From contig CM097885.1 of assembly GCA_044892525.1 (NCBI GenBank), positions 34,102,001 through 34,166,000 on the forward strand: a DNA stretch of 64,000 bases. The letters are read 5' to 3'. The stretch is from Schmidtea polychroa (Eukaryota). Each line of letters begins with the position of its first letter. Positions within the stretch are counted from its first letter, which is position 1. The notes under the pieces were generated by a model. That model made no database searches. It saw only the letters and a program-made list of their open reading frames with translations, and was not told where the DNA came from. Below are positions 19,501-43,100 of this stretch, piece by piece. A program made the translations under genes and the position numbers.

Positions 19501-22500
19501 AAAATATTTTTTACCATCAATTACTACTGATTTATTTTTATTTGAATTTATTAATTCTTGCAAAGATTCTTCAGTTGTCATTTTATAATAAATAAAAATG
19601 GATACTTGGAAACCAATTTTAAATAGACATAAGAGTAAATTTAATAATAAAGTATTTCCTGATAATTTTAGATTATTAATTGTTGGTTCTTCTGGATGTG
19701 GAAAGAATGTACTTGTTTTGAGAATGTTACTTGAAGATGATTTTTTAGATTATAATAATTTAATCTTTTATTCTACGACCATAAATCAACCAGAATTACA
19801 ACTTTTGAAATGTGGATTTGAAAATAAATTAACTAAAAAAGCAATAATTGATATTTTTAAAAATCAACATAGGTGTCCTGAAGAAGTTTTTCAACCTTGT
19901 GATATGGTTGATTGGTATAAGGAAAAGATTTTAGAATCAGATATTAGTAATAAAAATGATTATATTTGTGAAGAAGGGCAGGAGGCAATTCAAGTTTTAT
20001 TCTCTAATAAACCTGAAGATGTTTTACATTGTGATTTACTTCCTAAAGATAAAAAGAATCTAGTTATATTTGATGATGTTGTTAATATGAAAAATCAAGA
20101 GATTCAAAAGAGTTACTTTACACGAGGTCGACATAATAATTGTAATGTTATTTATATATCTCAAACATATTATGCTTTAGATAAAAATTCAATAAGAAAT
20201 AATTCCAATTGTTTTATATTTTTTAAATTAGATCGCCGTGATAAGAATATGATTTATAATGATTTATTTTCAAATGTTGAACCTGATAAGAATATGTTTG
20301 ATATGTTTGTTGATAATCATTGGAAAGAAAAATATAATTATATTTATTTGGATAGAGAAGAAGCTGAAATATGGAAAAGTTTGTTTTAGGGCTTGTCGAC
20401 TTAAAAACCTGTTTTCTGTAGTTCATTATTATAAAATCTACCTAATATTTTTTCATTATTTAAATCAAAGATGCTATATGTTATTGGAGTTGTATAATGT
20501 ATTTTATTTATAATAAAAATTTCATTTGTCCATTTTGCTGTGAATCCTTTTTCAAATTTATTTTTATATTTAAATATTCTTACTCGGTCACCAATTTTAA
20601 ACTTTGGTTTTTCAATAACATCATTTTCAATATTTACCACTTTAATGGTTTCAGGCTTCATGGAAGCATTTAAAGGTGTTAATTTTATAGAACTATGTAC
20701 ATCATTATTATATTCATTTACAATCTTTTGTAACAATTCATTGTTCCATTTTTGTTTTCCAATAGCAGTAAAATATTTCCACATTTTATTTTTTAATGTT
20801 CTATTTAATCTTTCAACTACGACTGCTTTTCCTTCGTTTTCTGTTGAATATAATTTAATATCATTTTCATTTAAAAACTTTGTTATAAAATTCTGTTCCT
20901 TTATCACTCCATAAATATTTTGGAATTCTTTGATGTTCTTCAAATATATTTTCAAATGCTTCTGTAATGGAATATCCTGTTTTATTTTCTAAACACCTTG
21001 CAAAAGCAAATCTTGTATATAAATCTATTACAGTTAAAATTATTTTATATTTTTCAGGGTCTGATGATTTGGGCATAAAGACTAAATCTGCAGACCATGT
21101 TTGATCTTTTTCATGTACTTGAACTTTTAAATATTTTTTATTTTTTCTAAATTCATGGTGTAATTCCTTTGCATATTTTATTTCTGATTCTGTTGGGGTT
21201 TGTAAACTAGCCTTGGATATATTCTCAAGGGATCTTTCAATGTCTGCTTGTTCGATAATCTTTTAATAAGCAACATCTTTTGCTATTCTAGGAAGTCTTG
21301 CACCCATGGTGATCGGACTGTGTCCTAAGCCTATGAAAATTTTACCTTTCATTGCTAATTTAACTAGAGCTCTTTGAATCTTTTCTTGGGTTGATGGATT
21401 TTGGATACTATTTAAATCATGTATTAAATTCACATCTGCAACATGTCTATCTCTAAGATTTGTTGAATTGTATGCAATGTCATGTTTTAAAGCTGCTTGA
21501 TCAATTCTATTTATTGGTTCTTCTCCTTGTTTGGGATTATTATTTTCATCTAATCTAATATCTAATCTTGTTCCTGGTCCGGTGTAGTTGTGTTTAAATA
21601 AATGTCTTTCACCTGGATATTTTTCTGTAGTAAAAGGTTTTAATATTGAAGATGTTGTTTTTGAAGATTGTAGAGCGCCTCCTGTATGTTTTTTAGTTTT
21701 TAAATGACTTGCTTTATGATGTCTTGTAACTTGACAATTACAAGTTTCACATCTCCAATAGGGTTTATTTAAAGACATTTTAAAATGTTAAAATATCAGG
21801 GATTATATCAAGAATCTCCCCTAACATTTTCGATTATTGAAATCTTTCCACCATATAATTTCATTTCTATTTTCTTTTCTTCTAATATTAATGTATATAC
21901 TTTAGCTTTAAAATTAGAATCCTTTGTTACATGAAGTGTAACATCAACATTATTTATAGCTAGACGATCATCTTGATCTGATACATTTATACAAAATATA
22001 GAATATAAATTTTTGAAATCTTCTAAACTTAATTGCGGTTCAACTTTGAAATCATAACATGTTTCAATATAATTTAGATATGGGAATATGTTTTCATTAT
22101 TTTCAATATTAAATTCCATTCTATTTATTGGATAATAAGAACTATTTAATTGAATTTGGATTGTTTTTAAATTATCATCTCCAATCTTTTGAATAAATAG
22201 ATTGTTATTTTTTTGGAAAGATGAATCTGTTTCTTTAAATCCAATCAAGATATATCTTGGTCGGTATGCTAAATTTGCTACCTTTATAGAATATGTTGAA
22301 CCCTCTGTCATACTAAATTCACTACAGATTCTATTTAAATAATTTACATTTATAGACTTGTTGGAATTTAATCTTTCAAGGAGTTTAATCTCAGAATGTG
22401 GGTTTAATGTCCATTCAGGTATATGTAATTCAAGTGTTGATAATTTTAATTTAGCTTTTGTATCAACAGCTCCATAGAACAATCTTTTATCACCTTCTAC

Positions 22501-25500
22501 TCTATTACAGATGAATTCTATAAAAACATTATGAAGTATACAATTATAGTTTTGAAGGAATCCAAACAAGTGTTTTAATTCAAAATAACCTTCAAATTTT
22601 TTAGATTTATAAAGTTCAGCTCTTTTATGGTAACCATGGTTTACATCTAAACCATCTTTATCTAAATCCCCTTTATTAACATCAGGAATCCAACCTGTTA
22701 ATTCACCATATTCGTTTTTATAATCACAACCAGTCAAAATAAAATTTAACATTGTAGAATATACTCCCGGATGCAAAACAGTTTCAATTTCTGATGATCC
22801 TAGTTTTAATCTCATGTTGGAGAATAAATTTGGAAAGAAATTATTTTCTAGGGTTATATCTTTGTTTGCTTCAATTTCTAATTCGATTTTATAATATAAT
22901 TTGGCATTACAAATATCTATAGGGTTTGATGTTTGAAGAGATTGAAAAACTATATCACCCCTACGATTTAAGTTTGCAATAGATCCTGAAGTTGGGGAGA
23001 TTTTAAGTACATCGTTTTTCTTGATTTCGTGAGTAAATTCTTTATTATAATCAAGATTTAATTTATTTTTTTCTTGAATTTTAAGATTTATATTATTCAT
23101 TTTTATATATTAAAATTTACACACACAAAATAGGATTAATTAAATATATTATGTAAGCCATTATAGCGGAGTGGGAATAGGCTTCAATTTTATCACCGGG
23201 AGTACCGGGTTCAATTTTCGATTTTGGTCAATTTTTTTCGATATTTTTTTTCAACGGAATCTGATTTTAGTATATATTTAAATTTTCAGATGGATCTGAG
23301 TGGTAGTTGTCGAGAAAATGAATAATTAATTATTAATTTCATCAATAAATAGTCACACATTAACAACTTACTTTATATTGAGTATAGCTCTAATAGCTTA
23401 GTGGTAATAGCACTCAACTGCATTGCCAATACCAATGGGTTCAAATCCCATTTCGGTCATTTTTTTTCAAATATTTTTTTTAACGAAATATTGATCAGCA
23501 TACTCGATTTAGTACTTGTACAAATTTTTAAGGAGATTGGTCAACGGCAACTCTTGGAAATTTAAGATCAAAAACGTTTTAACTACCAAAAATTAATATA
23601 TCCAATAAAAAAATATTTATAAAAATGGATGAGTTAAAAGAAAGAATGAGAAATGAATTGAATGAAGTTAAACATAAGAGAATGAAAAGAAGAGAAGAAG
23701 AACCATTAGAATACATCAAAGAGTTGATGGTAGATAATGAAAAGTATCGACATTTTTATATGAAGGTTGTAGATGTTGCTGATATAAGATTGAAGAAAAT
23801 GAAACAATTACAGGAAAGAGTTAAAGAACTTGAATCGATTATTTATAGTCTAAAAAATGACAAAAATTCAAACCTTGATGGCGCAGTGGGAATAGACTGG
23901 CACAGTGGTTCAAATGGATAGTGGTTCAAATCACATCTGAGGTTAGTTTTTTTTCAACATAAAATAATATTAAAAATTTGAAAATAATATTGAAAATAGT
24001 GTGGGTATCTTATATTTATAAAGTACTTGTATATTTTATTTTATTTATTTTATTTTATTTTATTTTTTTATTAATTAATTATTTTTTAAACATAAATATG
24101 AAAAAAAAAATATTGAAACGGGTGATGGTGGCGAACCCGTAATTATCGCCACCTGTCTTTCGAACACCCCCGGATCGATCCCGGTAATGTGCACATTTAT
24201 TTCTCGGTTGTTTTCGGACCTCTTTCGGATTCGCTTTCGAATTCATTTGTACTTTCGAGCAGCACACTTAAAACGCCGATGAAATCGTATTCGAGCGAGA
24301 AGCGAATAATAAGGTGTGCTGCTATTATCGAATTGATTCTGATGTATGAGTCTGGCCAGCTTGTATATTGGAAGAGATTTGATAAACGAAAGAGGTTGAT
24401 AAATAAAAAAATGATCCGGATCAAAAAAACTGTTAAAGGGGACAGTGATAAAAAAAAAAAAAATACCACTGTCCTCTCAGAGCAGTTTTACTATTTTTCA
24501 TTTATTTTTTAATTTATATAATTTAAAATCAATAATCTGATAAAGATCAACTCCGGAGTTTGATTGCGATCAAAAGTAGTGTGTATATAGCCCTATCCCA
24601 AATAGCCCTCTAACTTTTTCATAATGCCATTTTCTTTTCTATTCTCTTTTTAGTTTGAAGCTTTTGAGTTTGAGGCTTTAAAGATTAAGGGTGGTTGTTG
24701 TTTAAAATATGGGGTTAAAATACTATAAAAACATAGGTTTTATGTTGTTTTTCTAATGGTTTAAGCGTAATGGAGGTATGTTTTTGTTGGGAGGGCTGTT
24801 TGGGTTGGGTATATATACACACTACTGTCGTGTATAAAGAGAAAAATGATGAACAACATGACAAGATATTATTGTTGCAAATTACCTAGATTCTTCATAT
24901 TTATCATTGCAGTCAGTCAACTCAATTCAAGCCTTCATTTATGTTGTAATAATTGTTCATGGTTTGTAATAATTAATTGATTGTCAATGCACTTTGACAG
25001 TTTAGATATTTATTGATTAAAAAACTCAATGAGTCAGTAACTGTCGACTATTAATTTTAATGAAATACCCACCAAAACGAATGATATAAAAATTAAATTT
25101 AAACATTATTTGCAGAAACTAATTTTGATAAAACCAATTTGTTTATAAATGTTTTTTATCTCTTCCATCGAGCAAAATCAATATTTCCTTAAGAATTTAT
25201 CAAAAATTTAATAATTTCATGTGTTGTCTGATCTGTGTTACGGTGCAAATTATTTGACAGTTGTCTTGAACTTTTGGAATTTCAAATATTATTCTTGGGA
25301 AATTAATCATTGAAATTCCAGAAGTCTGAATCAACAAATTTGACTATATATATATATATATATACATACATTATTTTTACTAGAAATATTGTAATATAAA
25401 TATTTTTATAACAACAATATTATATCAAATAATAATTCTAAATAAAGAAAGGAAACTTTAATAAGTATTTGAAATTGTAAAATATTCATTAATTTCCGAA

Positions 25501-28500
25501 TAACTCTTTAAAATTAATTTTGTTTAAACCAATCAACACATACTTTCTAATATTCATTGTAAGAATTTAAAATATTTTGACATTTATTATATCCAATTTT
25601 ACTTTTAAGTTAATCTCTAAAGAAAATATAAATGTTTTAATCCAGTATTCCCCAAACATACAACCCATGTGTATCTTTTTCACATATTTTTTAACACTTC
25701 CTACCTATTAAAAGAAAATTTCTTGGATATACTATTAAAAAACTACTAATACTTTTTCCCATATGAGGTTAAGAAATAAAAAATTCTTAAATTTTGATTT
25801 TAGGGAAAATATTCTTTATAAGAGTTACTGATTGACTTTAAACACCTAAAACAATCTTCAAATAAATTTTCATCGAATTTTTAAAATAAAATATTGATTA
25901 TTTAAAAATTTTATAAGAAAATATTGCAGTTTCTTAAAAACAAATTTAATCATGTTAGTTTTGATAAACTATAAACAAAACATGAAAATTATTTTTTATA
26001 ATATAATGCAAATCTGTTTATTATAATTAAATGAATTAATCATTAATTATTAATGAGATCATAGTATGCATATAGCTAATGGTTTTAATGATCGGTGCTT
26101 GAATATAAAGAAAAGAATAAAATAAAATTTTTTAATCAAGAATAATGAAACGGATGATGTTGTTTATGTCCGGATTAAATTACTTTATTATTTGGTTCCT
26201 GATCTAATTTTAATCTTAGATGTGGCTCTACATTGAGTATTCTATTTCTATTTTTGTGATAATATAAACGAAAGTGGAAAAGGCAAATTCTCACAGATAG
26301 GAAGTTGGGAAAAGTAATATGAATTTCAGAACATTTTCAATTAATATAGGTTAAACATTTAATACTTCTGACCAAAATGACGCTAATCTATGTTCTGTAT
26401 ATCTATCTTTCAAGAATCCATATGAGGATAATTTTAACAATTGTTCTAATCCAATTTCATAAACCTCCTGACATGCATGTTGAAGCAATATTAAATGAAT
26501 ATCCTATACATTCAGCATTTTTCTCCAATCCAGGCAAATAATGCTATAGATTTAATTGTGATTTAATATAAATGCTATTTAATATTTCCCACATTTTCAC
26601 ATGAATACAACTGCCTGAATTTATCTGTAATTCATCAAGGAAAGATTTGAATTCTCCATTAATAACTCTTCAATGGCACAAATTTAATTTTTCTATCATA
26701 GCTTATACTTTATCTTGAACGTGAAACATTGAAACGTTTTTACCTTATAATGGCAAATTAAGACTGTTCAAGACAGAAAATATATCAACTAAATAGACTA
26801 ATTTATTTTATCCTTTCCAATCACGTAAATAGTATAGGCACTTTTTCAATTCTCCTCGAAGTTCAAACAATCGATTTAAAGTTTTCCTCTTGTTAGGCAA
26901 CGAGCATTTGTATGGCCGAGAAGTTAAATATGGATACTTCCCATTTCTTCACACATTTCTAAAAAATGTCTTAATATAATTAAAATTTTTTATTACTTTC
27001 ATCCAAAAACGTTTTTTAAATCTGGTGACGTACTACATGTTGCCAAAATGTTTTAAAATGTTTTCTTAGCAGATTCTTAAGAAGCGCAAAGTGACTCAAA
27101 GTCATTAAATTGATCATTTCATGCTTGTCGGTTGGAATCATATTCCTGTAGTTTTTCAGATGTAAGTGATTCAGTTTTTACCCAACAATTCATTTCTAGG
27201 ATCGATAAAATAATGTTAAAATTACAAAAACGATACACTAATCATAATTTTGAATAAAAATTAATGGAAAAAAACAATAATAGTGTAAGGAGTTAGTAAA
27301 CCTCTATATAACATTATTATGGTTAAATGGTAGAAGTGAGATCAGTTAGTAGAAATAATTATTTCTGTTAAATTTGTATATTTAAATTCTATATTAAATT
27401 ATATCATATTATATTAAATTATATTAAATTAAATCAATTAAATGTATGACCAGTAATTACATTAATATTAATAATTATCACGCCTCGGTGTTTAAATATT
27501 CTAGTAAACGGCACAATTTTTGAAGTTGTTATAAAAATAAATGCTTGAAGAAGACTTGAATTTAATTGCGTCTAACATGGCGACCACGACCACGGATTTA
27601 TTGATAAGCAGACTATTACCTGAGAAATTTCACAAAGGCGATGATTTAGAAAATTTTATCAAGGATTGTCAAAGGTTTTTTGGCGCGACAAAAACAACAA
27701 TTAGGATGCAAGTAATATTAACTACAACATTACTTGACAGATCGCTAATGGAAGATTATGAAGCAGCCGAAGGAAAAACTATGGAAGAGAAACTTCGATA
27801 TGCATTTTCAAAACCGACATCATTAATGGATGATCTAAAAGAAGCTTTGAGTTATGAACAAGGATCAGATTCAGCCGAAACTTTTATAGAGAAAATTAAA
27901 AAGATTACAAAGAAATTAATAGCGCACAAATGGGATGAAGAAGAAATAGAAAAATGCCTGCTTACAAACTGTGTAAGAGATCGAGAAGTTAAAAAAGAGA
28001 TCGAGATGAAAGATTTGAAAACAGTAGTATGATTGGAGCTCCCCCGGCCAGGAGCTCCCCCGGCCACATATACCCCCTCCCCCCCCCCCAAGAAAAAAAA
28101 ATTTTTTTTTAATTTTTTGTTTTAATTAATTGGCCGGGCGGGCTCACACTTTTTTTCATCCCAAAAATTAATGTTCCTGCCAACAGATTTTATTGACCGA
28201 TACCTCATCTTAAAGCTCAGTCCAAGACCTTTCGAATGAGCTATAGGTATCATATATATCTTTAATAGTTTTAATGTTATTAACAATTGATGACCACCAT
28301 CTTTTCAACGTTAAATTATTATTATTTTCCAAAATATTATTAATTGGCCGGGCGGGCTCACACTTTTTTTTCATCCCAAAAATAATGTTCCCACCAACAG
28401 ATTTTATTGACCGATACCTCATCTTAAAGCTCAGTCCAAGACCTTTCGAATGAGCCATAGAAGGTATCATCATCATTATTATTAACAAAGAGATTGACTC

Positions 28501-29127
28501 ACCCAATGACTCACCCAACGATGTCTAATATTTTTAGAACGATGCCAAATATTTTTAGAATGGTGCCTAATATTTTTAGAACGATTACATCATACTTTTA
28601 GAACGATGCCTCTTATTTTAGAACGATGTCTAATATTTTAGAACGATGCCTATTATTTTTAGAATGATTACGTCATATTTTTAGAATGATGCCTAATATT
28701 TTTAGAACGATGCCTATTATTTTTAGAACGATTACATCATACTTTTAGAACGATGCCTAATATTTTTAGAATGATGCCTAATATTTTTAGAATGATGTCT
28801 ATTATTTTTAGAACGATTACGTCATAATTTTAGAACGATGCCTAATATTTTTAGAATGATGCCTAATATTTTTAGAACGATTACGTCATACTTTTAGAAC
28901 GATGCCTAATATTTTTAGAATGATGTCTATTATTTTTAGAACGATTACGTCATAATTTTAGAACGATGCCTAATATTTTTAGAATGATGCCTAATATTTT
29001 TAGAACGATTACGTCATACTTTTAGAACGATGCCTAATATTTTTAGAATGATACCTAATATTTTTAGAACTAATAATCTTTGTTTTAATTATCGATTACA
29101 TATTAATTTAATTTGTTTAAATCGTTG

Positions 29128-29166
<39 letters not shown>

Positions 29167-32100
29167 ATTAGTCAAAAACCTAAAATAATTTTTACACACT
29201 AAGTTATGGGGAGAGAATTATTATATGTTTGCAGTATTCTGTGTTTGCCTTTACAGGAAGTTGTCAATAAGGAGCGATAATTTTATATACACATACCTTG
29301 TTTAACATGGGTGTATATACTCCTAGTCTATCCGACAAAATATTCTGTCCCCCTATGGGTACTGCTCACAAAATTACTGGTAAAAATATTCAAGACAAAA
29401 CTTTCTAAATTCTAAATATTATTCTTTAAATATACACTAAAATTTATTAACACATTCACATTCATCATCTCCACAGTTCATAACATTTTCAACAACATGA
29501 TCTATACAATCCCTATATACACACGGTTCAGTATCCGTAAATTCCTCCATAGGTTCATCAATTTCTTGAATGCTTTCCTCATCATCTTGAGTGTTTTCTT
29601 CATCTGTTTCATCAAATTCCGAATCTTCACTCTCTGCTACCCAGTCTATATTTAATGCGTTTGTAACAGATAATATATCCGCCATTTTCACACCAGATAT
29701 TTCTGCTAATTTTTCCAATAAAAAGTTTATTATAAATTCTAAATATTAAATAATTCGATAATTAACTAATCATATTAACCTTTTTCTGTAGTCATTATTA
29801 GTATTTTAAAACTATAGTATATATTTGTTTATAGAAAATATAGAATATAAGCGAAAACAAATATGACTAAATACATTTATTAAATACAACATTAAAATAA
29901 CTGTGAAAGTCTAGCAGACATAATTTTCCAAATTGGAGAATACACATCATTATTATCAACTTTATATCCTTGGATTGTAATTGTTATATACCAATTTTCG
30001 TTTTCTTTGAAACTGATTTCATCAAAGGAATCATAAAATTTTGCATATCGGTTGTTGAAAAATGCATTTTGATTGCATGATAGATTCGTATTCAACCTTT
30101 TGAAAACATCATCTATGGTTTTAATATCTAACATTGAAAGCGTGCCGGTTAAGAATTGAAATTGGGTAGGAATTAGCTTGATCGGTGACACCAATTTCAT
30201 ATTGATTTCTTCTTTTAAAAAATACATTTTGTAGTTGTGGAACATTTGAACAGGTTGTACAAGTTCTGGAACTACTTTTGGTTTTTCAGTGCTTGAAATT
30301 TTCTTGGTCATTGTGAATTATGATTAAAATGAAATGGTACAGGGTTTTTATACCTATGACTATTGTTTATCATCCAATCAGATTGCAGTATGTTTTTGTT
30401 TTAATTGAATGATAAATAATTAATTAAGTGATAATAAAAAATCTAAAAATTCTTTTCCTTCAATTATTGATTTAATTTCAGATATGATATTATCAACTAT
30501 ACTTTTGTAATCAATATTTTTTATTCCAAGAATTACTATCTTACCGCTAGCGAATATATTTACACACATAGGGTTATATTTTATATATCTCAAAGCTGGA
30601 AATAATTCTGGTTCATAAAAGCATGGTATTAATTTAGCTAATTTATTTAAATTACAAGAAAAACCTATATCGGAAGTTACGGTTATCGATTGTATTTCTA
30701 AATCATAAACATTATATTCACTAGCTTTGATTATTTCCTTACACCCCATAATTCTACATTTACCAGTTTTGAAATATATTATTGGATATTTATTACTTCT
30801 ATTGATAAGTTGTTGTGGTTTCCCTATTGGAAATACCATTTTTGATACATCAGTTTTTGCCCTGTAATTTATATTTGAAAGCATTTTAATGAAATAATTT
30901 TAAAAACTTTGATATATATAGGTATTTAAAAACAGAGTTCATTTAAATTATCAATATAAACAATAATTATATAGTTTAAATTTAAAAAATGGAATTACGA
31001 AATGATGCAGTATACCAAATCGTTGGTCCAAGTGGTAGCGGGAAAACTTTATTTGTTTGTAAATTACTAAAATCAAATTTGTTTAAAACAAAATTCAACA
31101 ATATTTATTGGCATAGGGGCGCCGACGAAGAACACGGATTGACGCAATCAAGTTTCTGTCAGTTGAAAAACATGAAAATAGTAAAGGTCTTTGATAAAAA
31201 CTGGTCAAGTCGTTTGAAGAAAGATGATGTCATCATTATCGATGATTTGTATCAAGAAGCCAATAAAGAAAAGGACTTTAATAATTTATTCACAAAAATC
31301 AGCAGACATGTTGGTGTAACAGTTATTTTCATAACACAAAATCTATTTCATCAAGGTGGTGCACATCGAACACGTAATTTAAATGTACAATATTTAGTTA
31401 TTTTCAAGAATCCTAGAGATGCAACTGTCATTGATTTTCTTGGACGACAAGCATACCCTAATAACCGTAATTTTCTTATCAGTGCATTTCAAGATGCCAC
31501 GAAAATACCGCATGGGTATATATTTCTCGATTTCACACAACAATGCCCTGATGATATACGGGTAAAAACGGATATTTTCAACCCAAAAGGTGCCATGGTA
31601 TATAAACAAAGTTCAAAACAAAGTTGAAAACATATAAATCATGTTTTCAAAAACAAGGATATCGGGTAAAAAACAACCAAAAGTTCCACCAACAACTAGT
31701 TATACTCCATCTAAAGAACTTATTACAGAAAATTTTCCTGCAATGAATCTTATTTCGAAAAATCCTAAACCAAAAAGTAAAACCACTAAGAAAGTAAAAG
31801 TTGTTAAAAATCATCGGAGTTTCCCGTTTTTCAATACATTGTTAAAGGCACCAAGTATGAAAAGAAACAGTATTTTGCAATCATTTCCAAATTATGTTGT
31901 CGATGATTTACTCGATATTATACTTAAAGTAGTCAAAGGCAAGATTAAAATCAGTAAATCTAAAAAGCAATTATTGAGTAAACATAGGAAACCTTTGCTA
32001 TCATTAGTAAATAATAAAAATCGTCAACAAATGAGAAAAATTATATATAAACAACAAGGGGGATTTATCGGTGCATTGATACCTTTAGCAATATCATTAT

Positions 32101-35100
32101 TAGGTGGAATAATAGGAAGTCGATCATAAACAATGGGTGCTAATCCTTCATTACCAGACATTAAATTTAATATTAAATCTTCTTGTTGTAATGGAGAAGA
32201 TTTGGACGAACCCGGAAGACGAAGCCGGTTTTGGTGGAGTGGCAAAATTAAGGAAAAGAGTTCCGAATTCGAAAAAGGAAACACAGAAGTGGTTATCAGA
32301 CCAGCTTGCGTACAGTTTGAACAAACCAATGCGGAAACGATTCCCAACAAGAACATATAAAACATATGGAATAAATGATTTATGGCAAATGGATTTGATG
32401 GAGATGATACCCTATTCGAAAATTAACAATGGGTATAAATATATTTTAACATGTATTGATGCAATAAGTTTAATTGTTCACACATATTTAAAAGTTTGGA
32501 TATTGTGAACAATTATACTTTAAATATTTAAGTAACACATCAAGTTTATCAATATATAATTCGTCAGCAAAGGTGAATGATTCTTCAACTTCATTATTAT
32601 ACGACACTGAAATTTCGATTTCTTCTCTCATTACACTGTTTGCTTCAAATAGATCAAAGCGTAATAAATATTCTGTTTCCATAACTTCATTTTTCAACTT
32701 ATTGCAACCCATTCGTCTGGCATCTTCAATATATTCGAATGTTATTGTAAATGGTTTAAAATCACAACTGATATTTAATCCATCCTTGTAAAACATAGTG
32801 CAATGCTGATCTAATATTTGATTCGGAATATGATATGTTTTATCATAATTACTGATAATAAAGATACCACTACATGTTTTCATAGCATTCCTTTTGAAAT
32901 CAATCTTACATTGACTATAAAATGGGAATGTATTGTACACGAATGTAAAATCTTGCAGTGCAACTTCCCAGTCACCATTTAAAGAAATCGGATTCTGGAG
33001 ATTGACCATGAATTTACTGGCTTGATTATCTGGATGAATAAGCGGGCAACTATTGCTTGGTAAAATAGTATAAAAATTCACTTTACTAGGTCCTTTTCTG
33101 ATATCCATGATGGGTTTTGATAACCATGCCATTTGACATAGTATTGTTTATCCTTGCCTTTATTTTTAGTTTTCAATATCTTCTGAATTCTAAATACTTT
33201 TGGGGGAGGAATAACTTGTAATTCCTGCTCATAAAATTTTCCTTGTACAATATTGTTATCATTGTCTTTGATGACATACATTACAGGATTCTGTTTAGTA
33301 TTTATTTTTGAAATTACAAAGACTTCATCACTCCAATTCGTATCAAAATTTTTAATAAATGGTGATGCACTAATTTTACTAATTCTAACATGGTCACCTA
33401 CTTTATATTTCGGTTTTGTAATTTTTTCAGGTTTTTTAGAATAGATTGTTTTTGACGTGATATCAATCGGCCTTAATCCATTCAGTCCTTGATGTGATGA
33501 GTGATTATAACTGGTTATTATTTTTGGTAAAACCAATACCCATTTTTTATTACCTTGATGCACGAATAATTTCTTTAATCTATCTCTCAAAGTTCGGTTA
33601 AATCTTTCAACATGAGCAGCTTTGTATTGAGAATGTACTGAGTAATGGTTTATTTTCATTTTATTGAGGATTTGCTTGACTTTACTGTTGTAGAATTCTT
33701 TACCTAAAATAATAATAATAATAATAAAAATAATAATATTAATACCTAAATCAGTTTGCAAGTTTTTAGGATGTCCATCTTTAAATAAATGATTAACAGC
33801 TTTGGACATTTCATCTGCAGATTTTGCCTTGACGGGTATTGCTCGGGCAAACCGACTGAATACATCAATACATGTTAAAATATATTTATACCCATTGTTA
33901 ATTTTCGAATAGGGTATCATCTCCATCAAATCCATTTGCCATAAATCATTTATTCCATATGTTTTATATGTTCTTGTTGGGAATCGTTTCCGCATTGGTT
34001 TGTTCAAACTGTACGCAAGCTGGTCTGATAACCACTTCTGTGTTTCCTTTTTCGAATTCGGAACTCTTTTCCTTAATTTTGCCACTCCACCAAAACCGGC
34101 TTCGTCTTCCGGGTTCGTCCAAATCTTCTCCATTACAACAAGAAGATTTAATATTAAATTTAATGTCTGGTAATGAAGGATTAGCACCCATTGTTTATGA
34201 TCGACTTCCTATTATTCCACCTAATAATGATATTGCTAAAGGTATCAATGCACCGATAAATCCCCCTTGTTGTTTATATATAATTTTTCTCATTTGTTGA
34301 CGATTTTTATTATTTACTAATGATAGCAAAGGTTTCCTATGTTTACTCAATAATTGCTTTTTAGATTTACTGATTTTAATCTTGCCTTTGACTACTTTAA
34401 GTATAATATCGAGTAAATCATCGACAACATAATTTGGAAATGATTGCAAAATACTGTTTCTTTTCATACTTGGTGCCTTTAACAATGTATTGAAAAACGG
34501 GAAACTCCGATGATTTTTAACAACTTTTACTTTCTTAGTGGTTTTACTTTTTGGTTTAGGATTTTTCGAAATAAGATTCATTGCAGGAAAATTTTCTGTA
34601 ATAAGTTCTTTAGATGGAGTATAACTAGTTGTTGGTGGAACTTTTGGTTGTTTTTTACCCGATATCCTTGTTTTTGAAAACATGATTTATATGTTTTCAA
34701 CTTTGTTTTGAACTTTGTTTATATACCATGGCACCTTTTGGGTTGAAAATATCCGTTTTTACCCGTATATCATCAGGGCATTGTTGTGTGAAATCGAGAA
34801 ATATATACCCATGCGGTATTTTCGTGGCATCTTGAAATGCACTGATAAGAAAATTACGGTTATTAGGGTATGCTTGTCGTCCAAGAAAATCAATGACAGT
34901 TGCATCTCTAGGATTCTTGAAAATAACTAAATATTGTACATTTAAATTACGTGTTCGATGTGCACCACCTTGATGAAATAGATTTTGTGTTATGAAAATA
35001 ACTGTTACACCAACATGTCTGCTGATTTTTGTGAATAAATTATTAAAGTCCTTTTCTTTATTGGCTTCTTGATACAAATCATCGATAATGATGACATCAT

Positions 35101-37157
35101 CTTTCTTCAAACGACTTGACCAGTTTTTATCAAAGACCTTTACTATTTTCATGTTTTTCAACTGACAGAAACTTGATTGCGTCAATCCGTGTTCTTCGTC
35201 GGCGCCCCTATGCCAATAAATATTGTTGAATTTTGTTTTAAACAAATTTGATTTTAGTAATTTACAAACAAATAAAGTTTTCCCGCTACCACTTGGACCA
35301 ACGATTTGGTATACTGCATCATTTCGTAATTCCATTTTTTAAATTTAAACTATATAATTATTGTTTATATTGATAATTTAAATGAACTCTGTTTTTAAAT
35401 ACCTATATATATCAAAGTTTTTAAAATTATTTCATTAAAATGCTTTCAAATATAAATTACAGGGCAAAAACTGATGTATCAAAAATGGTATTTCCAATAG
35501 GGAAACCACAACAACTTATCAATAGAAGTAATAAATATCCAATAATATATTTCAAAACTGGTAAATGTAGAATTATGGGGTGTAAGGAAATAATCAAAGC
35601 TAGTGAATATAATGTTTATGATTTAGAAATACAATCGATAACCGTAACTTCCGATATAGGTTTTTCTTGTAATTTAAATAAATTAGCTAAATTAATACCA
35701 TGCTTTTATGAACCAGAATTATTTCCAGCTTTGAGATATATAAAATATAACCCTATGTGTGTAAATATATTCGCTAGCGGTAAGATAGTAATTCTTGGAA
35801 TAAAAAATATTGATTACAAAAGTATAGTTGATAATATCATATCTGAAATTAAATCAATAATTGAAGGAAAAGAATTTTTAGATTTTTTATTATCACTTAA
35901 TTAATTATTTATCATTCAATTAAAACAAAAACATACTGCAATCTGATTGGATGATAAACAATAGTCATAGGTATAAAAACCCTGTACCATTTCATTTTAA
36001 TCATAATTCACAATGACCAAGAAAATTTCAAGCACTGAAAAACCAAAAGTAGTTCCAGAACTTGTACAACCTGTTCAAATGTTCCACAACTACAAAATGT
36101 ATTTTTTAAAAGAAGAAATCAATATGAAATTGGTGTCACCGATCAAGCTAATTCCTACCCAATTTCAATTCTTAACCGGCACGCTTTCAATGTTAGATAT
36201 TAAAACCATAGATGATGTTTTCAAAAGGTTGAATACGAATCTATCATGCAATCAAAATGCATTTTTCAACAACCGATATGCAAAATTTTATGATTCCTTT
36301 GATGAAATCAGTTTCAAAGAAAACGAAAATTGGTATATAACAATTACAATCCAAGGATATAAAGTTGATAATAATGATGTGTATTCTCCAATTTGGAAAA
36401 TTATGTCTGCTAGACTTTCACAGTTATTTTAATGTTGTATTTAATAAATGTATTTAGTCATATTTGTTTTCGCTTATATTCTATATTTTCTATAAACAAA
36501 TATATACTATAGTTTTAAAATACTAATAATGACTACAGAAAAAGGTTAATATGATTAGTTAATTATCGAATTATTTAATATTTAGAATTTATAATAAACT
36601 TTTTATTGGAAAAATTAGCAGAAATATCTGGTGTGAAAATGGCGGATATATTATCTGTTACAAACGCATTAAATATAGACTGGGTAGCAGAGAGTGAAGA
36701 TTCGGAATTTGATGAAACAGATGAAGAAAACACTCAAGATGATGAGGAAAGCATTCAAGAAATTGATGAACCTATGGAGGAATTTACGGATACTGAACCG
36801 TGTGTATATAGGGATTGTATAGATCATGTTGTTGAAAATGTTATGAACTGTGGAGATGATGAATGTGAATGTGTTAATAAATTTTAGTGTATATTTAAAG
36901 AATAATATTTAGAATTTAGAAAGTTTTGTCTTGAATATTTTTACCAGTAATTTTGTGAGCAGTACCCATAGGGGGACAGAATATTTTGTCGGATAGACTA
37001 GGAGTATATACACCCATGTTAAACAAGGTATGTGTATATAAAATTATCGCTCCTTATTGACAACTTCCTGTAAAGGCAAACACAGAATACTGCAAACATA
37101 TAATAATTCTCTCCCCATAACTTAGTGTGTAAAAATTATTTTAGGTTTTTGACTAAT

Positions 37158-37199
<42 letters not shown>

Positions 37200-40100
37200 C
37201 AACGATTTAAACAAATTAAATTAATATGTAATCGATAATTAAAACAAAGATTATTAGTTCTAAAAATATTAGGCATCATTCTAAAAATATTAGGCATCGT
37301 TCTAAAAGTATGACGTAATCGTTCTAAAAATATTAGGCATCATTCTAAAAATATTAGGCATCGTTCTAAAATTATGACGTAATCGTTCTAAAAATAATAG
37401 ACATCATTCTAAAAATATTAGGCATCGTTCTAAAAGTATGACGTAATCATTCTAAAAATATTAGGCATCATTCTAAAAATATTAGGCATCGTTCTAAAAG
37501 TATGATGTAATCGTTCTAAAAATAATAGGCATCGTTCTAAAAATATTAGGCATCATTCTAAAAATATGACGTAATCATTCTAAAAATAATAGGCATCGTT
37601 CTAAAATATTAGACATCGTTCTAAAATAAGAGGCATCGTTCTAAAAGTATGATGTAATCGTTCTAAAAATATTAGGCACCATTCTAAAAATATTTGGCAT
37701 CGTTCTAAAAATATTAGACATCGTTGGGTGAGTCATTGGGTGAGTCAATCTCTTTGTTAATAATAATGATGATGATACCTTCTATGGCTCATTCGAAAGG
37801 TCTTGGACTGAGCTTTAAGATGAGGTATCGGTCAATAAAATCTGTTGGTGGGAACATTATTTTTGGGATGAAAAAAAAGTGTGAGCCCGCCCGGCCAATT
37901 AATAATATTTTGGAAAATAATAATAATTTAACGTTGAAAAGATGGTGGTCATCAATTGTTAATAACATTAAAACTATTAAAGATATATATGATACCTATA
38001 GCTCATTCGAAAGGTCTTGGACTGAGCTTTAAGATGAGGTATCGTCCAATAAAATCTGTTGGCAGGAACATTAATTTTTGGGATGAAAAAAAGTGTGAGC
38101 CCGCCCGGCCAATTAATTAAAACAAAAAAATTAAAAAAAAAATTTTTTCCCGGGGGGGGGGGGGAGGGGGTATATGTGGCCGGGGGAGCTCCTGGCCGGG
38201 GGAGCTCCAATCATACTACTGAAAACATCAGATGAAATAAAAGCGACAATAAAGAAATTAGAAAAGGTAAACAAAATTATGGGCCATGTTAATGTTGTGA
38301 AGACTTCACCGGTTGTTCAAAACTACAGAAGCTACAGAGATGTTGCTCAAAGAGGAATGGTAAACGGAAATAATAATTTCAACCAACGAAACGTCAGTAA
38401 CCGACAATTGGAATGCTGGACATGCAAGAAAATTGGTCATGTGAGTCGAGAATGCCAAATGAAAAAGAAAATTACGTGTTTTGCATGCGGAGTTGAAGGC
38501 CATGTACGGCGAGAATGTTCAACGATTCAATGCCAGAGATGTCACTTACGTGGACATAAGGAGATTGACTGCTATACAAATTTGGAAAGAAGGAAGTTTC
38601 AAACTAATTCAAACATGAGAAACAATAATTATTATGCCCATCGAACCACAAGCTATCAACAAAAGATCAACAATCCAAGAAGAACAATTGCAGCAATTGA
38701 ACCTAATGATGAGACGATGCCATTGGAGTATTCAGACGATGCAGAAGACAAATATGAGGAGATTCAGCACCCAAAAGTACATGCTTCGACACGGGAGGCA
38801 ATGATCGGAGCAATATACTAGGTAATTTTGATATTGATGTAAATATTGGTCATAATAATTTTAATAATGTAAATAATCCTTATTTTTATAATAATGTAGA
38901 ACCTTTATGTAATAATATTTGTAATTTTAAAAAGTTTCCTTTAAATAATTTTAAATGTTATAGTTATTTTAATGCTGATCGATCTTTAATAAATAATAAT
39001 AATAATAATCCTAAGAATCAAGAAGAGTATAGTGAAATTAAAGAAGCAGAATATAATAATAAAATAGTAAATGAAAAAGTTTATAAATTTATTAAGAAGG
39101 CAGAAGATAAATTAGAGAGAAAGGAAATTGGGTGGATTAATGAAATATCAGAGGAGCAAAATATTTTCACTAAAGATGAATGGAAACGACCGAAATTGAG
39201 TTATGACAAAATGCAAGGTAGACCGAGTACAACTCTTGAAATTCAGGGTTATAGAATGGAATGCTTACTAGATACAGGAGCAAGAGTAAATGTAATGGCA
39301 GAAGCAGTTGTGGAAAAATTAGTGAATGTGAAAATCATAAAAACAGATGAGATGTTAAGATGTGCAAATGATAGTAAATTAGAGACAATCGGAAAAATAT
39401 ATATTGATGTTAGAATTGGTAATATGGAAAGAAAAATAACATTTATAATAGTTAAAAATATTGTTCCAGATATAATAGGCGGAGTGGAATTGCAGAAAGA
39501 GTTTGGAATTGAATTAAACTACATCAAGCAAAATGAAGAAGGATATAATGAATTTATATGTGAAATAGAAGCTAGATTTGGGGAAAAGATTACAGATAAC
39601 GAGAGATGTCAAAGAGCAATAGAAATTCTAAGATTAAACGAAAATAAAAGACTGTTAGAGATTGTTAAATACAATAAAAGTGTTTTTATGGCTAATAACT
39701 GGGATATCGGATGTACTGATTTAATTGCACATAAAATCATCACAAAAGAAGGGCCAATTATGATAAAACCCAGAAGACAACTCATCAATTTAGAGGAGAA
39801 AATAAATGCTGCTATAAAAAATTTAGAAAATAATGATATCATAAGAAGATGTAATTCACCTTGGAATACGCCGTTAGTATGCGTGTGGAAAAAAGACAAA
39901 AAAGATATCAGACTTTGTTTAGATTTTAGACAGCTTAATAAGATTACTGAAAGACAAGCTTTTCCTATGCCGAATGTAGAAGAAAGTCTAGATACATTAC
40001 ATGGATCTAAGTACTTTAGTTCTATAGACCTTGGGAACGCTTATTATCAGGTGAAATTGGACATAGAATCGCAAGAAAAGACAGCATTTTCTACTAAAGA

Positions 40101-43100
40101 AGGACAATTTTGTTTTAATAGAATGCCTTTTGGCATTGCGGCGGCACCGGGTACATTCCAAGAATTAATGACAAAAATATTGAAAGATCTATGGAAAGAA
40201 GGAGTTATGGTGTATTTAGACGATATTTTAATTTTTACAAGAACAATTGAAGAACATTACAATGTGTTTGGAAAAGTTCTAGAGAAAATAAGGGAAGCTA
40301 AATTGAGAATCAACCCAGAAAAATGTCAGTTATTAAAGAGCGAAGTAAAGTTTTTAGGGCACATTATTAACAGTCAGGGGATTCGGACAGATCAAAGTAA
40401 AATTGAGGCTATTAAATCATTTCAGGGGCCTAAGTGTATAAAGAATTTGAGAAGCTTTTTAGGTATATGTAACTATTATCGGAGATTTATTAAGGAATAT
40501 GCAACAAAATCAAGAGCGCTAGAAAGCATATGTGGAAGCAATAGTGAAAAAATAATCTGGACTGAGGAATGTGAGAAAGCTTTCGAAGAAATGAAAATGG
40601 CGTTGACTACAGCGCCAATTCTCGTATTTCCAGATTTCAAGAAAGAATTCATATTAGATACAGACGCAAGCTTTGATGCAATTGGAGCTGTATTATCACA
40701 AAGAGATGAAATGGGGCATGAACACGTTATTGCATATGGATCGCATGCAATGAGTAGCCATGAAAGAGGATATTGTATAACACGAAAAGAGCTTTTGGCT
40801 ATATATTATTTCTGGCGCCATTTCAACCATTATTTATACGGTAAACGGTTGGTTTTGCGCACTGATCATAAAGCAATAACTTTTATGTTAACGACAAAGC
40901 AGCCGATAACAGCACAGTTCCAAACGTGGATAAATTACTTGAGCAGTTTAGACATAAAAATGGAGTTCAGAAAAGGTACGGCGCATACGAATGCAGATAT
41001 GCTGTCTAGAAATACATGCGGCAAATGTGTACAATGTTTGATGAACCATGATAACCCCAAATCAGGGCGATTTAAAACTAGATTGTTAACATTGATGACC
41101 GAAAATAATGGAAATGAATGCAAAGAGATAATGCAGAAATACAAGATATAAAAGATCAAATAAATGAAAGGAAAAATAATAAATATATATTAAAAGGAAA
41201 TATTATCTATACCAATCAAAACAAAATATGGATACCAGAAACAAAAAGACGAGAAATGATTAAGGAAACACATTTATTATTATGCCACGCAGGAGTAGAA
41301 AAAGTTATGAAATATATTTGGAACAATTTTGATATGTAAGATTTGCTAAATGAAGTAAAAGAGACTATTTCAATATGTGAAGCATGCCAGAAAAACAAAG
41401 TTTTAACTACAAAGTCAAAAGAAAAAACCCAAGTAATTCAAGCTTCAGAACCTATGGAGAAAATATACATGGATATTTGCGGTCCATTAAGATAAACCTT
41501 CAGAGGAGAAAAATATATTTGTGCAATAATCGATCATTACAGTAAATACATATCTCTAACTCCTATTAGAAAGCAAGATGAAAATACAATAAAGGCAGTT
41601 TTGTTAAATAATTGGATATTGAAATTTGGAGTCCCTAAGGAACTACATGTTGATTGTTGAAAAAATTTCGAAGCAAGTAGCATTAAAGAACTAGCAAAGG
41701 CAGCAGGAATTGAGTTGATATTTTCGAGTCCGTATCATCATAATACTAATGGTGTAATTGAAAGACAATTTCGTACTATAAGAGACTATATTAATGCATC
41801 ACTCAGAGAAGGAGTTAAAAAAAGCTGGGCAGAATTAATACCTGATATAGAATACGTTTTAAATGCGACAGCTCAAAAAACTACTGGAGTGAGTCCAGCA
41901 GAAATTATTTTTGGAAGAAAGATTAATAGATCGCAATGGCATAGTAATAATGAAGTGGATAGAAATGAAATCATGCGGAAATTAGAGGCTAAAAGACAGC
42001 AAGCGAAAGAAATTGGCACAACTAGGAACTTAGAAGTGGGGGACAAAGTATTGGTGAAACAAGAAATTAGAAACAAAGATCACGAGAGATATGAAGGACC
42101 ATACACAGTAATAAAACGAAATCATGAAAGAAGTTATTTATTAACAGACGAAAACGGAAGAAAAATAACGAGGAATATAGAAAAGTTAAAGCATTTTAAA
42201 GAAGGGGGGATGTAAGGAGTTAGTAAACCTCTATATAAAATTATTATGGTTAAATGGTAGAAGTGAGATCAGTTAGTAGAAATAATTATTTCTGTTAAAT
42301 TTGTATATTTAAATTCTATATTAAATTATATCATATTATATTAAATTATATTAAATTAAATCAATTAAATGTATGACCAGTAATTACATTAATATTAATA
42401 ATTATCACGCCTCGGTGTTTAAATATTCTAGTAAACGGCACAATTTTTGAAGTTGTTATAAAAATAAATGCTTGAAGAAAACTTGAATTTAATTGCGTCT
42501 AACAAATAGTACATCAAGAAATTCAATAGTAAAATAAACTTACATGGTATTTGTGAAAGTAATTAAACAGAATTAGTATTTAATTTCCAGTTTTAAATAG
42601 ATTTAAATAATATGCTAAAAGTAAATAATAAAATTATAAATTAAAAATTATAAATTAAATATATTTAAGAATGATCGAAAATTAAAATATGAAATATTTA
42701 TTGAATACTTATGTACGAATATTCCCTATTCAATAATTAATTCATGCTTGCGAAAATATTCTCAATCCTATAAACAGAGATTGCTTAAATAAGACAGATT
42801 TTGTGTTGTTTTCATAAATATAGTTTTGTTTTGTTTTGAAATATTATAAATGTTATTAATTCAAGAAATCTAACATCTAATAGAATGACTATTATTTTGC
42901 AATAAACATGCATATTGATTTAAATATTTTAGAAAAGTAATATTTGTTATATTTACCTTCTATGTAATTTAAATACTATAAAATATTATTTTTATTGTAT
43001 TTATTTAAAAGCTTGACTGTGAATCAATAAATATATCGATGTTTTATATAGTCAAAAAACATCGATATATTTTCTGATTCATAGTCAAGCTTTTCAATTG

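Follow-up and report, generated by a model that had tools for sequence, protein, structure and literature searches.

Within the window, the whole 64,000-nucleotide stretch of Schmidtea polychroa DNA that was analyzed, positions 28023..38220 are occupied by a palindromic Polinton derivative of 10.2 kb, as compared with ~16 kb for intact copies, which interrupts the gag of a gypsy LTR element (Table 1). The LTRs of this host element differ at 2 of 294 positions, and the element has its own 5-bp TSD, AATAG. A sequence-only reading of this DNA had described two ~4.4-kb inverted arms around a 1.4-kb spacer, AGTAGT/ACTACT termini with an exact 6-bp TSD, and a gag that rejoins in frame, and these descriptions agree with our results. 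GAAAAC flanks the derivative on both sides but occurs singly in 9/9 other gypsy copies fetched (39 other matches listed), where it is followed by the sequence that stands after the right TSD in the window, with 1–2 substitutions; it is thus a true 6-bp TSD. The gag reading phase is equal left and right of the insert, which is a matter of arithmetic only. Between the arms there are 8 substitutions and 3 indels, every one within the outer 1.1 kb (TIR) and inside the left TIR-equivalent region, while the inner 3.33 kb show zero differences. The length and identity of the arms exclude chance. No second internal terminus or TSD is present inside the element.

Table 1 Features of the Polinton derivative and its insertion site (positions in the window).
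Feature	Position	Strand	Details
Host gypsy LTR element	27284..42504	+	LTRs 27284-27577 and 42211-42504; gag interrupted by the Polinton derivative
Left TSD copy GAAAAC	28017..28022	+	6 bp, inside gag of the gypsy LTR element
Left arm	28023..32461	+	4,439 bp; inverted copy of the integrase-side end of the parent; 1,342 bp shorter beside the centre
Left TIR-equivalent region	28023..29170	+	16-bp, ~214-bp, 21/64-bp and ATT repeats; inner boundary approximate
82-aa acidic ORF, left copy	29437..29685	-	no Pfam family above cut-off
139-aa ORF, left copy	29892..30311	-	no Pfam family above cut-off
TBP-like gene, left copy	30420..30884	-	PF00352, E 1.4e-15
A32-type packaging ATPase, left copy	30989..31627	+	PF04665, E 9.4e-7
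162-aa basic ORF, left copy	31641..32129	+	"PW" is a provisional label of the sequence-only reading; no Pfam family above cut-off
Integrase 5' fragment	32191..32508	+	90 matching codons, then sequence derived from the junction
Spacer	32462..33862		1,401 bp
Junction	32462..32509	.	4 nt without match on either side, 11-nt stem remnant, 6-bp inverted repeat with 21-nt loop
Penton (minor capsid) gene	32488..33132	-	cut after codon 209 of 355
RVE integrase with chromodomain, full length	33078..34133	-	351 codons; PF00665 (rve), E 6.7e-8
Right arm	33863..38220	-	4,358 bp; integrase-side end of the parent; colinear with intact copies from 32510 on
162-aa basic ORF, right copy	34195..34683	-	
A32-type packaging ATPase, right copy	34697..35335	-	
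TBP-like gene, right copy	35440..35904	+	
139-aa ORF, right copy	36013..36432	+	
82-aa acidic ORF, right copy	36639..36887	+	
Right TIR region	37154..38220	-	inner boundary approximate
Right TSD copy GAAAAC	38221..38226	+	6 bp

The gene content likewise bears out the earlier description. The ATPase, the TBP-like gene and the three small ORFs are doubled, and the ATPase and TBP-like ORFs are undamaged. One integrase is complete, equals that of an intact copy in 350/351 residues and contains a 42-nt in-frame GT..AG insert that is probably an intron. The penton gene is truncated, and polB, protease and the major capsid gene are absent from 28023-38220, being sited in the section of intact copies that is missing here. 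As Pfam and PDB sequence searches did not recognize the penton, capsid and polB of this family, these were identified via folding, the Atlas and pairwise comparison; the penton of an intact relative has a fold that matches the mavirus penton (Foldseek E 2.5e-8).

The full-length parent that had been called for exists: intact 16-kb copies were mapped in the genome, in a Polinton family of over a thousand copies. Judged by sequence, the window element is derived from the integrase-side end of this family, with 98.3–99.5% identity to 28 other fetched loci. The nearest other copy compared has 2 differences in 1,637 bases and most copies have 3–12, and a single template for both arms is supported by these comparisons. 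The element shares with autonomous Polintons its TIRs with AG-starting ends, its 6-bp TSD and its RVE integrase, but has no protein-primed polB and no capsid or protease gene, its penton is cut and its ATPase is present twice. Its ends and sequence come from an autonomous family of the same genome, as in a non-autonomous Polinton derivative, and both ends come from one parental end and one template, as in a copy-back molecule, an assignment that is provisional for the outermost 1.1 kb of the left arm. A helper-dependent satellite should recur in identical form at multiple sites, each with its own TSD, whereas this structure has 1 match in the genome. We therefore regard the window element as a fold-back derivative, defective and present in single copy, of a 16-kb Polinton that is very active.

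The central junction carries the signature of a fold. An 11-nt stem remnant with 1 mismatch (32466-32476) is followed by a 6-bp inverted repeat (32477-32482 and 32504-32509) enclosing a 21-nt loop, whose orientation is opposite to that in the right arm, and the parent penton gene has the same repeat with its loop unflipped. One arm has also lost 1,342 bp beside the centre, which implies a second break besides the fold. The junction is thus best read as the product of two events, folding at a 6-bp inverted repeat of the penton gene and a 1,342-bp loss from one arm. It had been proposed that one Polinton end was copied back on itself by a template switch; the single template and the fold signature uphold this proposal, but the second break shows that it was not one simple switch. 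The parental hairpin at the fold site is unremarkable (z -0.49), and 6-bp repeats with 3–30-nt loops occur 17 times per kb. The fold-back at C2:147.74 Mb uses the same repeat as the window. A fold hotspot is nonetheless not established, as this fold-back was found by searching that very site and any two of seven points would fall within 50 nt of each other 15% of the time.

Such elements recur in the genome, and from both Polinton ends. We found 13 independent fold-backs (integrase end, 7; polymerase end, 6), with 6-bp TSDs verified in 9/13 and the remaining 4 unresolved or unfetched. The junctions of all four fold-backs tested are unique. A central local fold is present in 6 of the 12 junctions examined (the window, C2:147.74, and C1:179.57, 79.02, 150.51 and 29.61 Mb), and the other 6 of the 12 have no central hairpin. 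In a count with a polB probe, the first 100 of 396 matches include 7 inverted pairs within 25 kb, as opposed to 0.31 expected; all 7 are inverted duplications and two are one event, leaving 6 events per ~93 elements. The ATPase census (first 100 of 1,507 matches) gave 2 pairs in fold-back orientation and 2 opposite pairs where 2.07 were expected, and thus no excess alone. One of its two fold-back-orientation pairs is a clear fold-back and the other, C1:19.76, is ambiguous and was left out of the 13. By end, the rates of 2/98 (integrase side) and 6/93 (polymerase side) are similar (p 0.16). A first census, of 11 inverted pairs in the first 100 of 665 matches to a near-TIR probe, was dropped despite its apparent 11-to-0 excess; only one of the other 10 pairs, when fetched, was a coding fold-back, the rest being 3 gene-less palindromes, 2 hybrids and 4 shorter elements related to the satellite. 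Neither the same-strand pairs at C1:3.39, 11.23 and 30.03 Mb nor the divergent pair at 18.57 Mb qualify as fold-backs.

The gene-less palindromes are 13–15 kb long, have the same ends and a common arm boundary, and lie at different TSDs (3/3 examined; 1,510 probe matches), from which it follows that giant palindromes are moved in trans by the Polinton machinery. TSDs are also carried by Polinton/satellite hybrids, at C1:7.29 and 8.48 Mb, whose two ends are unlike. The gene-less palindromes, a family separate from the window element, are the real mobile satellite of the genome. The sequence-only reading had taken the window element for a helper-dependent satellite that keeps its own integrase, and a search for the junction had been set beforehand as the test. 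With up to 3 mismatches allowed, the junction has 1 match in the 781-Mb genome, and the window copy is therefore not a spreading satellite. A spreading helper-dependent lineage would be expected to keep its ends intact, to have a TSD and to encode a full-length integrase beside undamaged ATPase and TBP-like ORFs, all of which the window element does. Yet four polymerase-end fold-backs (C1:21.41, 79.02, 150.51 and 167.20 Mb) likewise have TSDs and intact ends although they carry no integrase gene, so the retention of a full-length integrase in the window is incidental. The only repeated junction found, shared by C1:167.20 and 167.72 Mb, was considered as a mobile fold-back lineage and rejected, since both flanks are shared too and the repeat is a segmental duplication. 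For this assembly, the spreading-satellite reading is thus largely refuted, and we regard it as very unlikely.

How the window element formed can be judged less firmly. We favour, at roughly even confidence, a fold on a free replicating molecule before integration over chromosomal repair via the TIRs. A free linear Polinton copy would have been replicating from its integrase-side end when the growing strand halted in the penton gene; the 3' end would have paired with the 6-bp inverted repeat 21 nt off, within the same strand or on the displaced one, after which synthesis would have returned outward to the same end. The product would carry one terminus twice and would contain no polB, protease or major capsid gene. 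As Polinton ends are cis signals, the enzymes of an intact copy could then have integrated it with a normal 6-bp TSD. The 1,342-bp loss may reflect a second template jump or a later palindrome-stabilizing deletion, giving the 1.4-kb spacer. The fold-back has not multiplied. That the fold took place off the chromosome is inferred, as are the enzyme involved and the sequence in which folding, deletion and integration happened. In phi29, end-derived subgenomic DNA arises via template switching, according to PMC4974454, and long palindromes are stabilized by asymmetric deletions, as described in PMC8701086. The copy-back order is favoured by the arms, which are identical over 3.33 kb when even the nearest other copy has 2 differences in 1,637 bases, by the central folds, which a conversion tract entering from the TIR does not predict, and by the excess of inverted polB pairs, the 9/13 TSDs, the outer TIRs at C1:259.86 Mb, the gene-less palindromes and the hybrids. 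Against it count the TIR-only arm differences, which would fit an original left TIR but for which repeat-unit conversion is an alternative cause, as well as the hairpin-less half of the junctions, the unmultiplied lineages, the ordinary parental hairpin, the commonness of 6-bp repeats and the non-significant rarity of unlike ends. Unlike ends occur in 1/9 fold-backs (C1:179.57 Mb, entered by hand) and 3/7 other copies (Fisher p 0.19).

The sequence-only reading had the copy-back integrated afterwards. This order is only plausible, as an exact TSD and intact ends would also survive repair that re-enters the left TIR. In such a repair, a full-length Polinton would have integrated, a break or stalled fork in its penton gene would have folded back (alternatively, the right TIR was invaded by the left one), inverted copying of the right end would have followed, and TIR homology would have rejoined the left flank, deleting the polB, protease and capsid genes yet keeping ends and TSD. 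We consider this possible, though short of probable. The restriction of arm differences to the TIR, with no change in the interior, which is found in the window and at C2:147.74 and largely so at C1:21.41, speaks for it, as do the unique junctions. As proof of a retained left end these differences were rejected, since each variant either recurs elsewhere, in other repeat units or copies, or is a private one within a homopolymer. For Galileo, TIR extension has been proposed to arise by repair that uses the other TIR (PMC3573991), and yeast shows fold-back priming at breaks near short inverted repeats, with rescue by repeats (PMC10622511). With a Galileo-type extension, which would keep the original left TIR and send a conversion tract inward from it, the TIR-limited differences fit, whereas the central hairpin and C1:259.86 do not: at that locus the two outer TIRs share one type, the polymerase-end TIR, which belongs to a different type, lies internally and is cut, and the right outer TIR resembles the left outer TIR over most of its length, with one stretch resembling the internal TIR. 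The frequency of the class and the integration of gene-less palindromes and hybrids as units also weigh against repair. Lengths point both ways. Three of the nine fold-backs with both ends mapped exceed the ~16-kb unit (17.2, 19.2 and 26.6 kb), which favours repair and argues against a capsid step for those three, while none of the six polymerase-end events is longer than one unit (p roughly 0.004 in a crude model with a uniform fold point and no later deletion), which opposes it. A packaging cap is thus suggestive for polymerase-end events and contradicted by the oversize fold-backs.

An assembly or amplification artefact, in which the TIR repeat led to the joining of a chimeric fold-back read to the opposite flank, seems unlikely to us. 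Strand-displacing amplification yields inverted chimeras (PMC1855051, PMC6218980), and no run with the junction was found; in 4 runs of contigs from divergent samples, only parental continuations were seen at 32461, 32504 and 32509 among the matches listed. The 20 listed runs are contigs only, and the 4 examined neither support nor refute the junction. However, the flanks differ, come from one gypsy element and carry a true TSD, and the junction is compound, with a fold, a mismatched stem remnant, 4 extra bases and the 1,342-bp loss. Other fold-backs moreover have features of aged genomic DNA: that at C1:167.20 Mb sits in a segmental duplicate later hit by a 0.9-kb insertion, that at C1:21.41 Mb has a 1.9-kb secondary insertion in its spacer, and arms have diverged to 97–99.5%. 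Two independent copies lying head to head or nested, later trimmed by deletions, we hold to be barely credible. Copies of this family lie densely, and C1:19.76-19.79 Mb, where an inverted partial copy (96.7–98.6%) comes after a complete element, may be such a case, but zero differences in 3.33 kb would have p ~0.017 at nearest-copy distance and 5e-6 at typical distance, the stem remnant and flipped loop require a fold, and the needed second internal terminus or TSD is absent.

TSD-flanked fold-backs from both ends (~6 per 93 polB-bearing copies, in one census) are the expected residue of protein-primed strand displacement. To our knowledge, such replication in animal Polintons has been inferred from gene content and not observed, and the fold-back class makes the model testable. 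More tentatively, the class may be a fossil library of Polinton replication errors, recording a protein-primed polymerase, both origins, free DNA and integration in trans, with the gene-less 13–15-kb satellite as the only lineage that spread. If true, this would count as evidence, at the genome level, that an animal Polinton replicates by two-ended strand displacement and is exploited by parasites resembling defective-interfering genomes. Hairpin RNA directed against the family might also come from fold-back copies. Two cautions follow: a rearrangement cannot be dated by an exact TSD, and palindromes in single copy should not be called satellites.

Copy-back and snap-back defective viral genomes carry one end twice, keep the cis signals and lose trans functions. 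By analogy, the window element resembles them in all three respects, helper interference and amplification being theirs. The subgenomic DNA of phi29 is reportedly palindromic. Like the window element, it is shortened and end-derived, from a protein-primed strand-displacing replicon (PMC4974454, citing Murthy et al. 1998); it is, however, described there as free phage DNA, mainly from one end, whereas the Polinton fold-backs are TSD-flanked insertions to which the two ends contribute at similar rates. In Galileo (TIR1-F1-F1-TIR2), internal sequence is likewise duplicated inverted so that the TIR grows, and the longest TIRs are in non-autonomous copies; according to PMC3573991, those extensions span hundreds of bases and are explained by post-insertion repair, while the Polinton fold-back extensions measure 2.5–10 kb, hold whole genes and have a central hairpin at half of the junctions. 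Fold-back inversions with asymmetric central deletions share the deletion on one side of the centre (PMC8701086). Butterfly Polintons also have core genes doubled in long (2-kb) TIRs, and polB-less copies that seem still mobile, but there it is capsid and protease that are doubled, in a spreading family (10.1101/2025.02.07.637071), and the S. polychroa fold-backs are one-off with varied junctions. Animal Polintons/Mavericks (polintoviruses), with the gene set given in PMC4028283 and PMC6431247, share with the window element AGTAGT-starting TIRs, a 6-bp TSD, an RVE integrase with chromodomain, an A32-type ATPase and a penton. Intact relatives also have polB, an adenovirus-like protease and a double-jelly-roll capsid gene, which the window element lacks; it has 4.4 kb of one end twice, inverted. 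Expansion of Polinton inverted repeats was reported earlier, per reviews cited in PMC3573991; in the literature covered, which includes few subscription papers, multi-kilobase fold-back Polintons as a class were not found. The recurrence of similar copies with different fold points in the family may record how Polintons copy their DNA.

The fold-back is the single long inverted repeat that self-comparison finds in the window, and the two arms of about 4.4 kb and the 1.4-kb spacer described by the sequence-only reading were recovered by base-level alignment. Between the arms there are 8 substitutions and 3 indels, every one in the outer 1.1 kb, leaving no differences in the inner 3.33 kb. Both termini read AGTAGT inward, and GAAAAC flanks each side. 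As the host gypsy element carries GAAAAC only once, followed by right-flank sequence, in 9/9 other copies fetched (39 other matches listed), the claimed exact 6-bp TSD stands, as does the in-frame rejoining of gag, with the same phase left and right of the fold-back. The gene list also agrees: ATPase and the TBP-like gene are doubled in the arms, together with three ORFs without a Pfam family, integrase is present as one full copy and one stub, and penton is cut at codon 209 of 355. The truncated gene is identified as penton through the model of an intact relative (pLDDT 93.5, 69 sequences), which matches the mavirus penton best (E 2.5e-8). The integrase carries a 42-nt in-frame, AT-rich GT..AG insert (33708-33749, minus strand), which measures 42, 45 or 30 nt in relatives (64 instances, from overlapping loci) and is probably a small spliceosomal intron.

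A second, unrelated Polinton lies at 9199-25101, with polB (PF03175), capsid (PF21738), a PLA2-like domain and a split integrase. Its right end is intact, its left end is short of about 10 terminal bases, and on its two sides a direct repeat of 275 bp (9199-9473 and 24827-25101, 99.3%) stands in place of a 6-bp TSD. Short MITE-like inverted-repeat elements are found at 59708-60461, 60626-60733 and 43003-43098.

Features of the fold-back in the window, fold-backs elsewhere in the genome and gene-less palindromes
Feature	Position	Length	TSD	Basis or remark
Left arm	28023-32461			base-level alignment
Right arm	33863-38220			base-level alignment
Spacer	between arms	1,401 bp		base-level alignment
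Integrase-end fold-back	window		GAAAAC
Integrase-end fold-back	C2:147.74 Mb (147,739,220-147,749,548)	10.3 kb	CACCAA
Integrase-end fold-back	C1:4.16 Mb	17.2 kb	TTTAGA
Integrase-end fold-back	C1:179.57 Mb	19.2 kb	TGTGAC
Integrase-end fold-back	C1:259.86 Mb	26.6 kb	AACAAA
Integrase-end fold-backs	C1:29.6 and 63.57 Mb			both ends not mapped
Polymerase-end fold-back	C1:21.41 Mb	10.6 kb	TAAGCA
Polymerase-end fold-back	C1:79.02 Mb	11.3 kb	TAAGTA
Polymerase-end fold-back	C1:150.51 Mb	11.0 kb	CAATAA
Polymerase-end fold-back	C1:167.20 Mb	12.6 kb	AACAAC
Polymerase-end fold-backs	C1:90.50 and 174.26 Mb			both ends not mapped
Gene-less palindrome	C1:51.53 Mb			L115/L116
Gene-less palindrome	C1:58.39 Mb			L117/L118
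Gene-less palindrome	C1:71.29 Mb			L119/L120

The full-length parent, for which a search had been proposed, was found. Intact copies of about 16 kb run TIR, polB, protease, major capsid, 120-aa ORF, penton, integrase, 162-aa ORF, ATPase, TBP-like gene, two small ORFs and TIR, a Polinton gene set as in PMC4028283 and PMC6431247, and the 781-Mb genome holds 1,507 exact matches to an ATPase 22-mer and 396 to a polB 22-mer. The polB was recognised through its similarity to the PF03175-positive polymerase of the window's other Polinton (E 1e-103) and the protease by PF00770, while for the capsid gene the Atlas neighbours (PF21738 in 65% of members of one cluster) provide a lead. At one locus a 214-bp TIR sub-repeat has grown to about 13 units at one end (L043:1751-4586). 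Three copies that are not fold-backs (L051/L053, L096/L098 and L121/L122; C2:101.65, C2:103.14 and C1:28.91 Mb) have TIRs of different types, which differ by 14-35 substitutions over 330 nt; a TSD nevertheless flanks each copy.

Within the penton gene of intact copies, a 6-bp inverted repeat surrounds 21 nt. At the window junction this loop has the reverse orientation with respect to the right arm; ahead of it come an 11-nt piece left from the mirrored stem and 4 more bases, beyond which the left arm picks up 1,342 bp further out. In a plus-strand reading, the parent minus strand would have folded back at the 6-bp repeat to give a perfect palindrome, one side of whose centre would subsequently have been lost; asymmetric central deletions stabilise long palindromes (PMC8701086). 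In the other-strand reading, a switch to the displaced strand would have been followed by a second jump. The sequence is compatible with either reading. Judged by their identity, both arms are copies of one template: even the closest of the other copies (46 rows compared, among them overlapping loci and the window itself) has 2 differences in 1,637 bases, so that zero differences in 3.33 kb would be improbable for independent copies (P 0.017 to 5e-6).

Altogether, 13 independent fold-backs were found. The least biased census comes from the polB probe, which gave, among the first 100 of its 396 matches, 7 inverted pairs less than 25 kb apart (0.31 expected), all 7 confirmed as fold-backs and representing 6 events. 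Among the first 100 of its 1,507 matches, the ATPase probe gave 2 pairs per orientation, which is chance level; these include one clear fold-back and an ambiguous one, C1:19.76, left out of the 13. Fold-back rates did not differ significantly between probes (p 0.16). A central fold is present at 6 of the 12 junctions examined, with loops of 9 to ~100 nt where read.

The earlier proposal of a spreading satellite was not borne out, as the junction 35-mer has one genome match with up to 3 mismatches allowed. Integrase retention as a satellite trait likewise falls, since four end-mapped polymerase-end fold-backs have no integrase gene, and the window element keeps its own because of where the fold fell. 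A fold-site pattern search yielded one more element, at C2:147.74 Mb, which differs from the window fold-back in TIR type, stem resolution and second breakpoint. This element (L094/L095) is itself inserted in an older Polinton, within the penton region; that older Polinton has ~72% identity to the family. The junctions of two further fold-backs are also unique in the genome, and where a junction is common, solely at C1:167.20 and 167.72 Mb, the flanks are common too. These loci (L128, L139, L142, L143), 520 kb from each other, are a segmental duplication or haplotype duplicates; both contain the fold-back, and one has an additional 0.9-kb insertion. The window fold-back qualifies neither as an autonomous Polinton nor as a multi-copy satellite; it is a non-autonomous Polinton derivative, behaving like a copy-back defective genome.

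The true mobile satellite is the gene-less palindrome family. The three copies examined have one arm boundary in common and different TSDs, and their spacer of 0.5-0.7 kb is found in either orientation, which recombination between palindrome arms would produce; the arm-boundary 26-mer has 1,510 genome matches. Giant palindromes with Polinton ends have thus moved in trans. These copies, of 13-15 kb and with the same Polinton ends, were among 11 inverted pairs (0 opposite) given by a near-TIR probe, from which a fold-back excess was dropped, 9 of the 11 not being coding fold-backs. In hybrids at C1:7.29, 8.48 and 179.57 Mb (L107/L108, L109/L110, L044/L045), the integrase-side arm of a Polinton is joined to an end of satellite type; their TIR tips are unlike, but their TSDs are exact.

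That the fold-back formed before integration we consider an even chance. The exact TSD is not decisive, because chromosomal fold-back repair can rejoin through the left TIR. Formation before integration is favored by the central hairpins at junctions, the high frequency of fold-backs, the mobility of the gene-less palindromes, the TSD-flanked hybrids with unlike ends, and the element at C1:259.86 Mb, whose two outer TIRs largely agree with one another rather than with the internal polymerase-end TIR; in phi29, a protein-primed polymerase is described as switching templates (PMC4974454). Formation after integration, by chromosomal repair, is the somewhat less probable reading, to which the restriction of arm differences to the TIR, the unique junctions and three oversize elements point. 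Repair is proposed to have extended TIRs in Galileo (PMC3573991), fold-back priming occurs at breaks in yeast (PMC10622511) and inversions are linked to Polintons in C. elegans (PMC11414722). In the TIR-identity comparison, unlike ends were counted in 1/9 fold-backs versus 3/7 other copies, not a significant difference (p 0.19). An assembly or other artefact is improbable: among the sister elements, some have later insertions, some have arms that have diverged and one lies in a segmental duplicate, so the class is old genomic DNA. We judge the structure in the window to be real.

In the literature searched, with most subscription papers outside its scope, we found no account of multi-kilobase fold-back Polintons arising at both ends. 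A Maverick expansion is reported in Dugesia, palindromes being unmentioned in the text available (10.64898/2025.12.11.693146), and butterflies are reported to have Polintons with gene-containing 2-kb TIRs as well as mobile Polintons without polB (10.1101/2025.02.07.637071).
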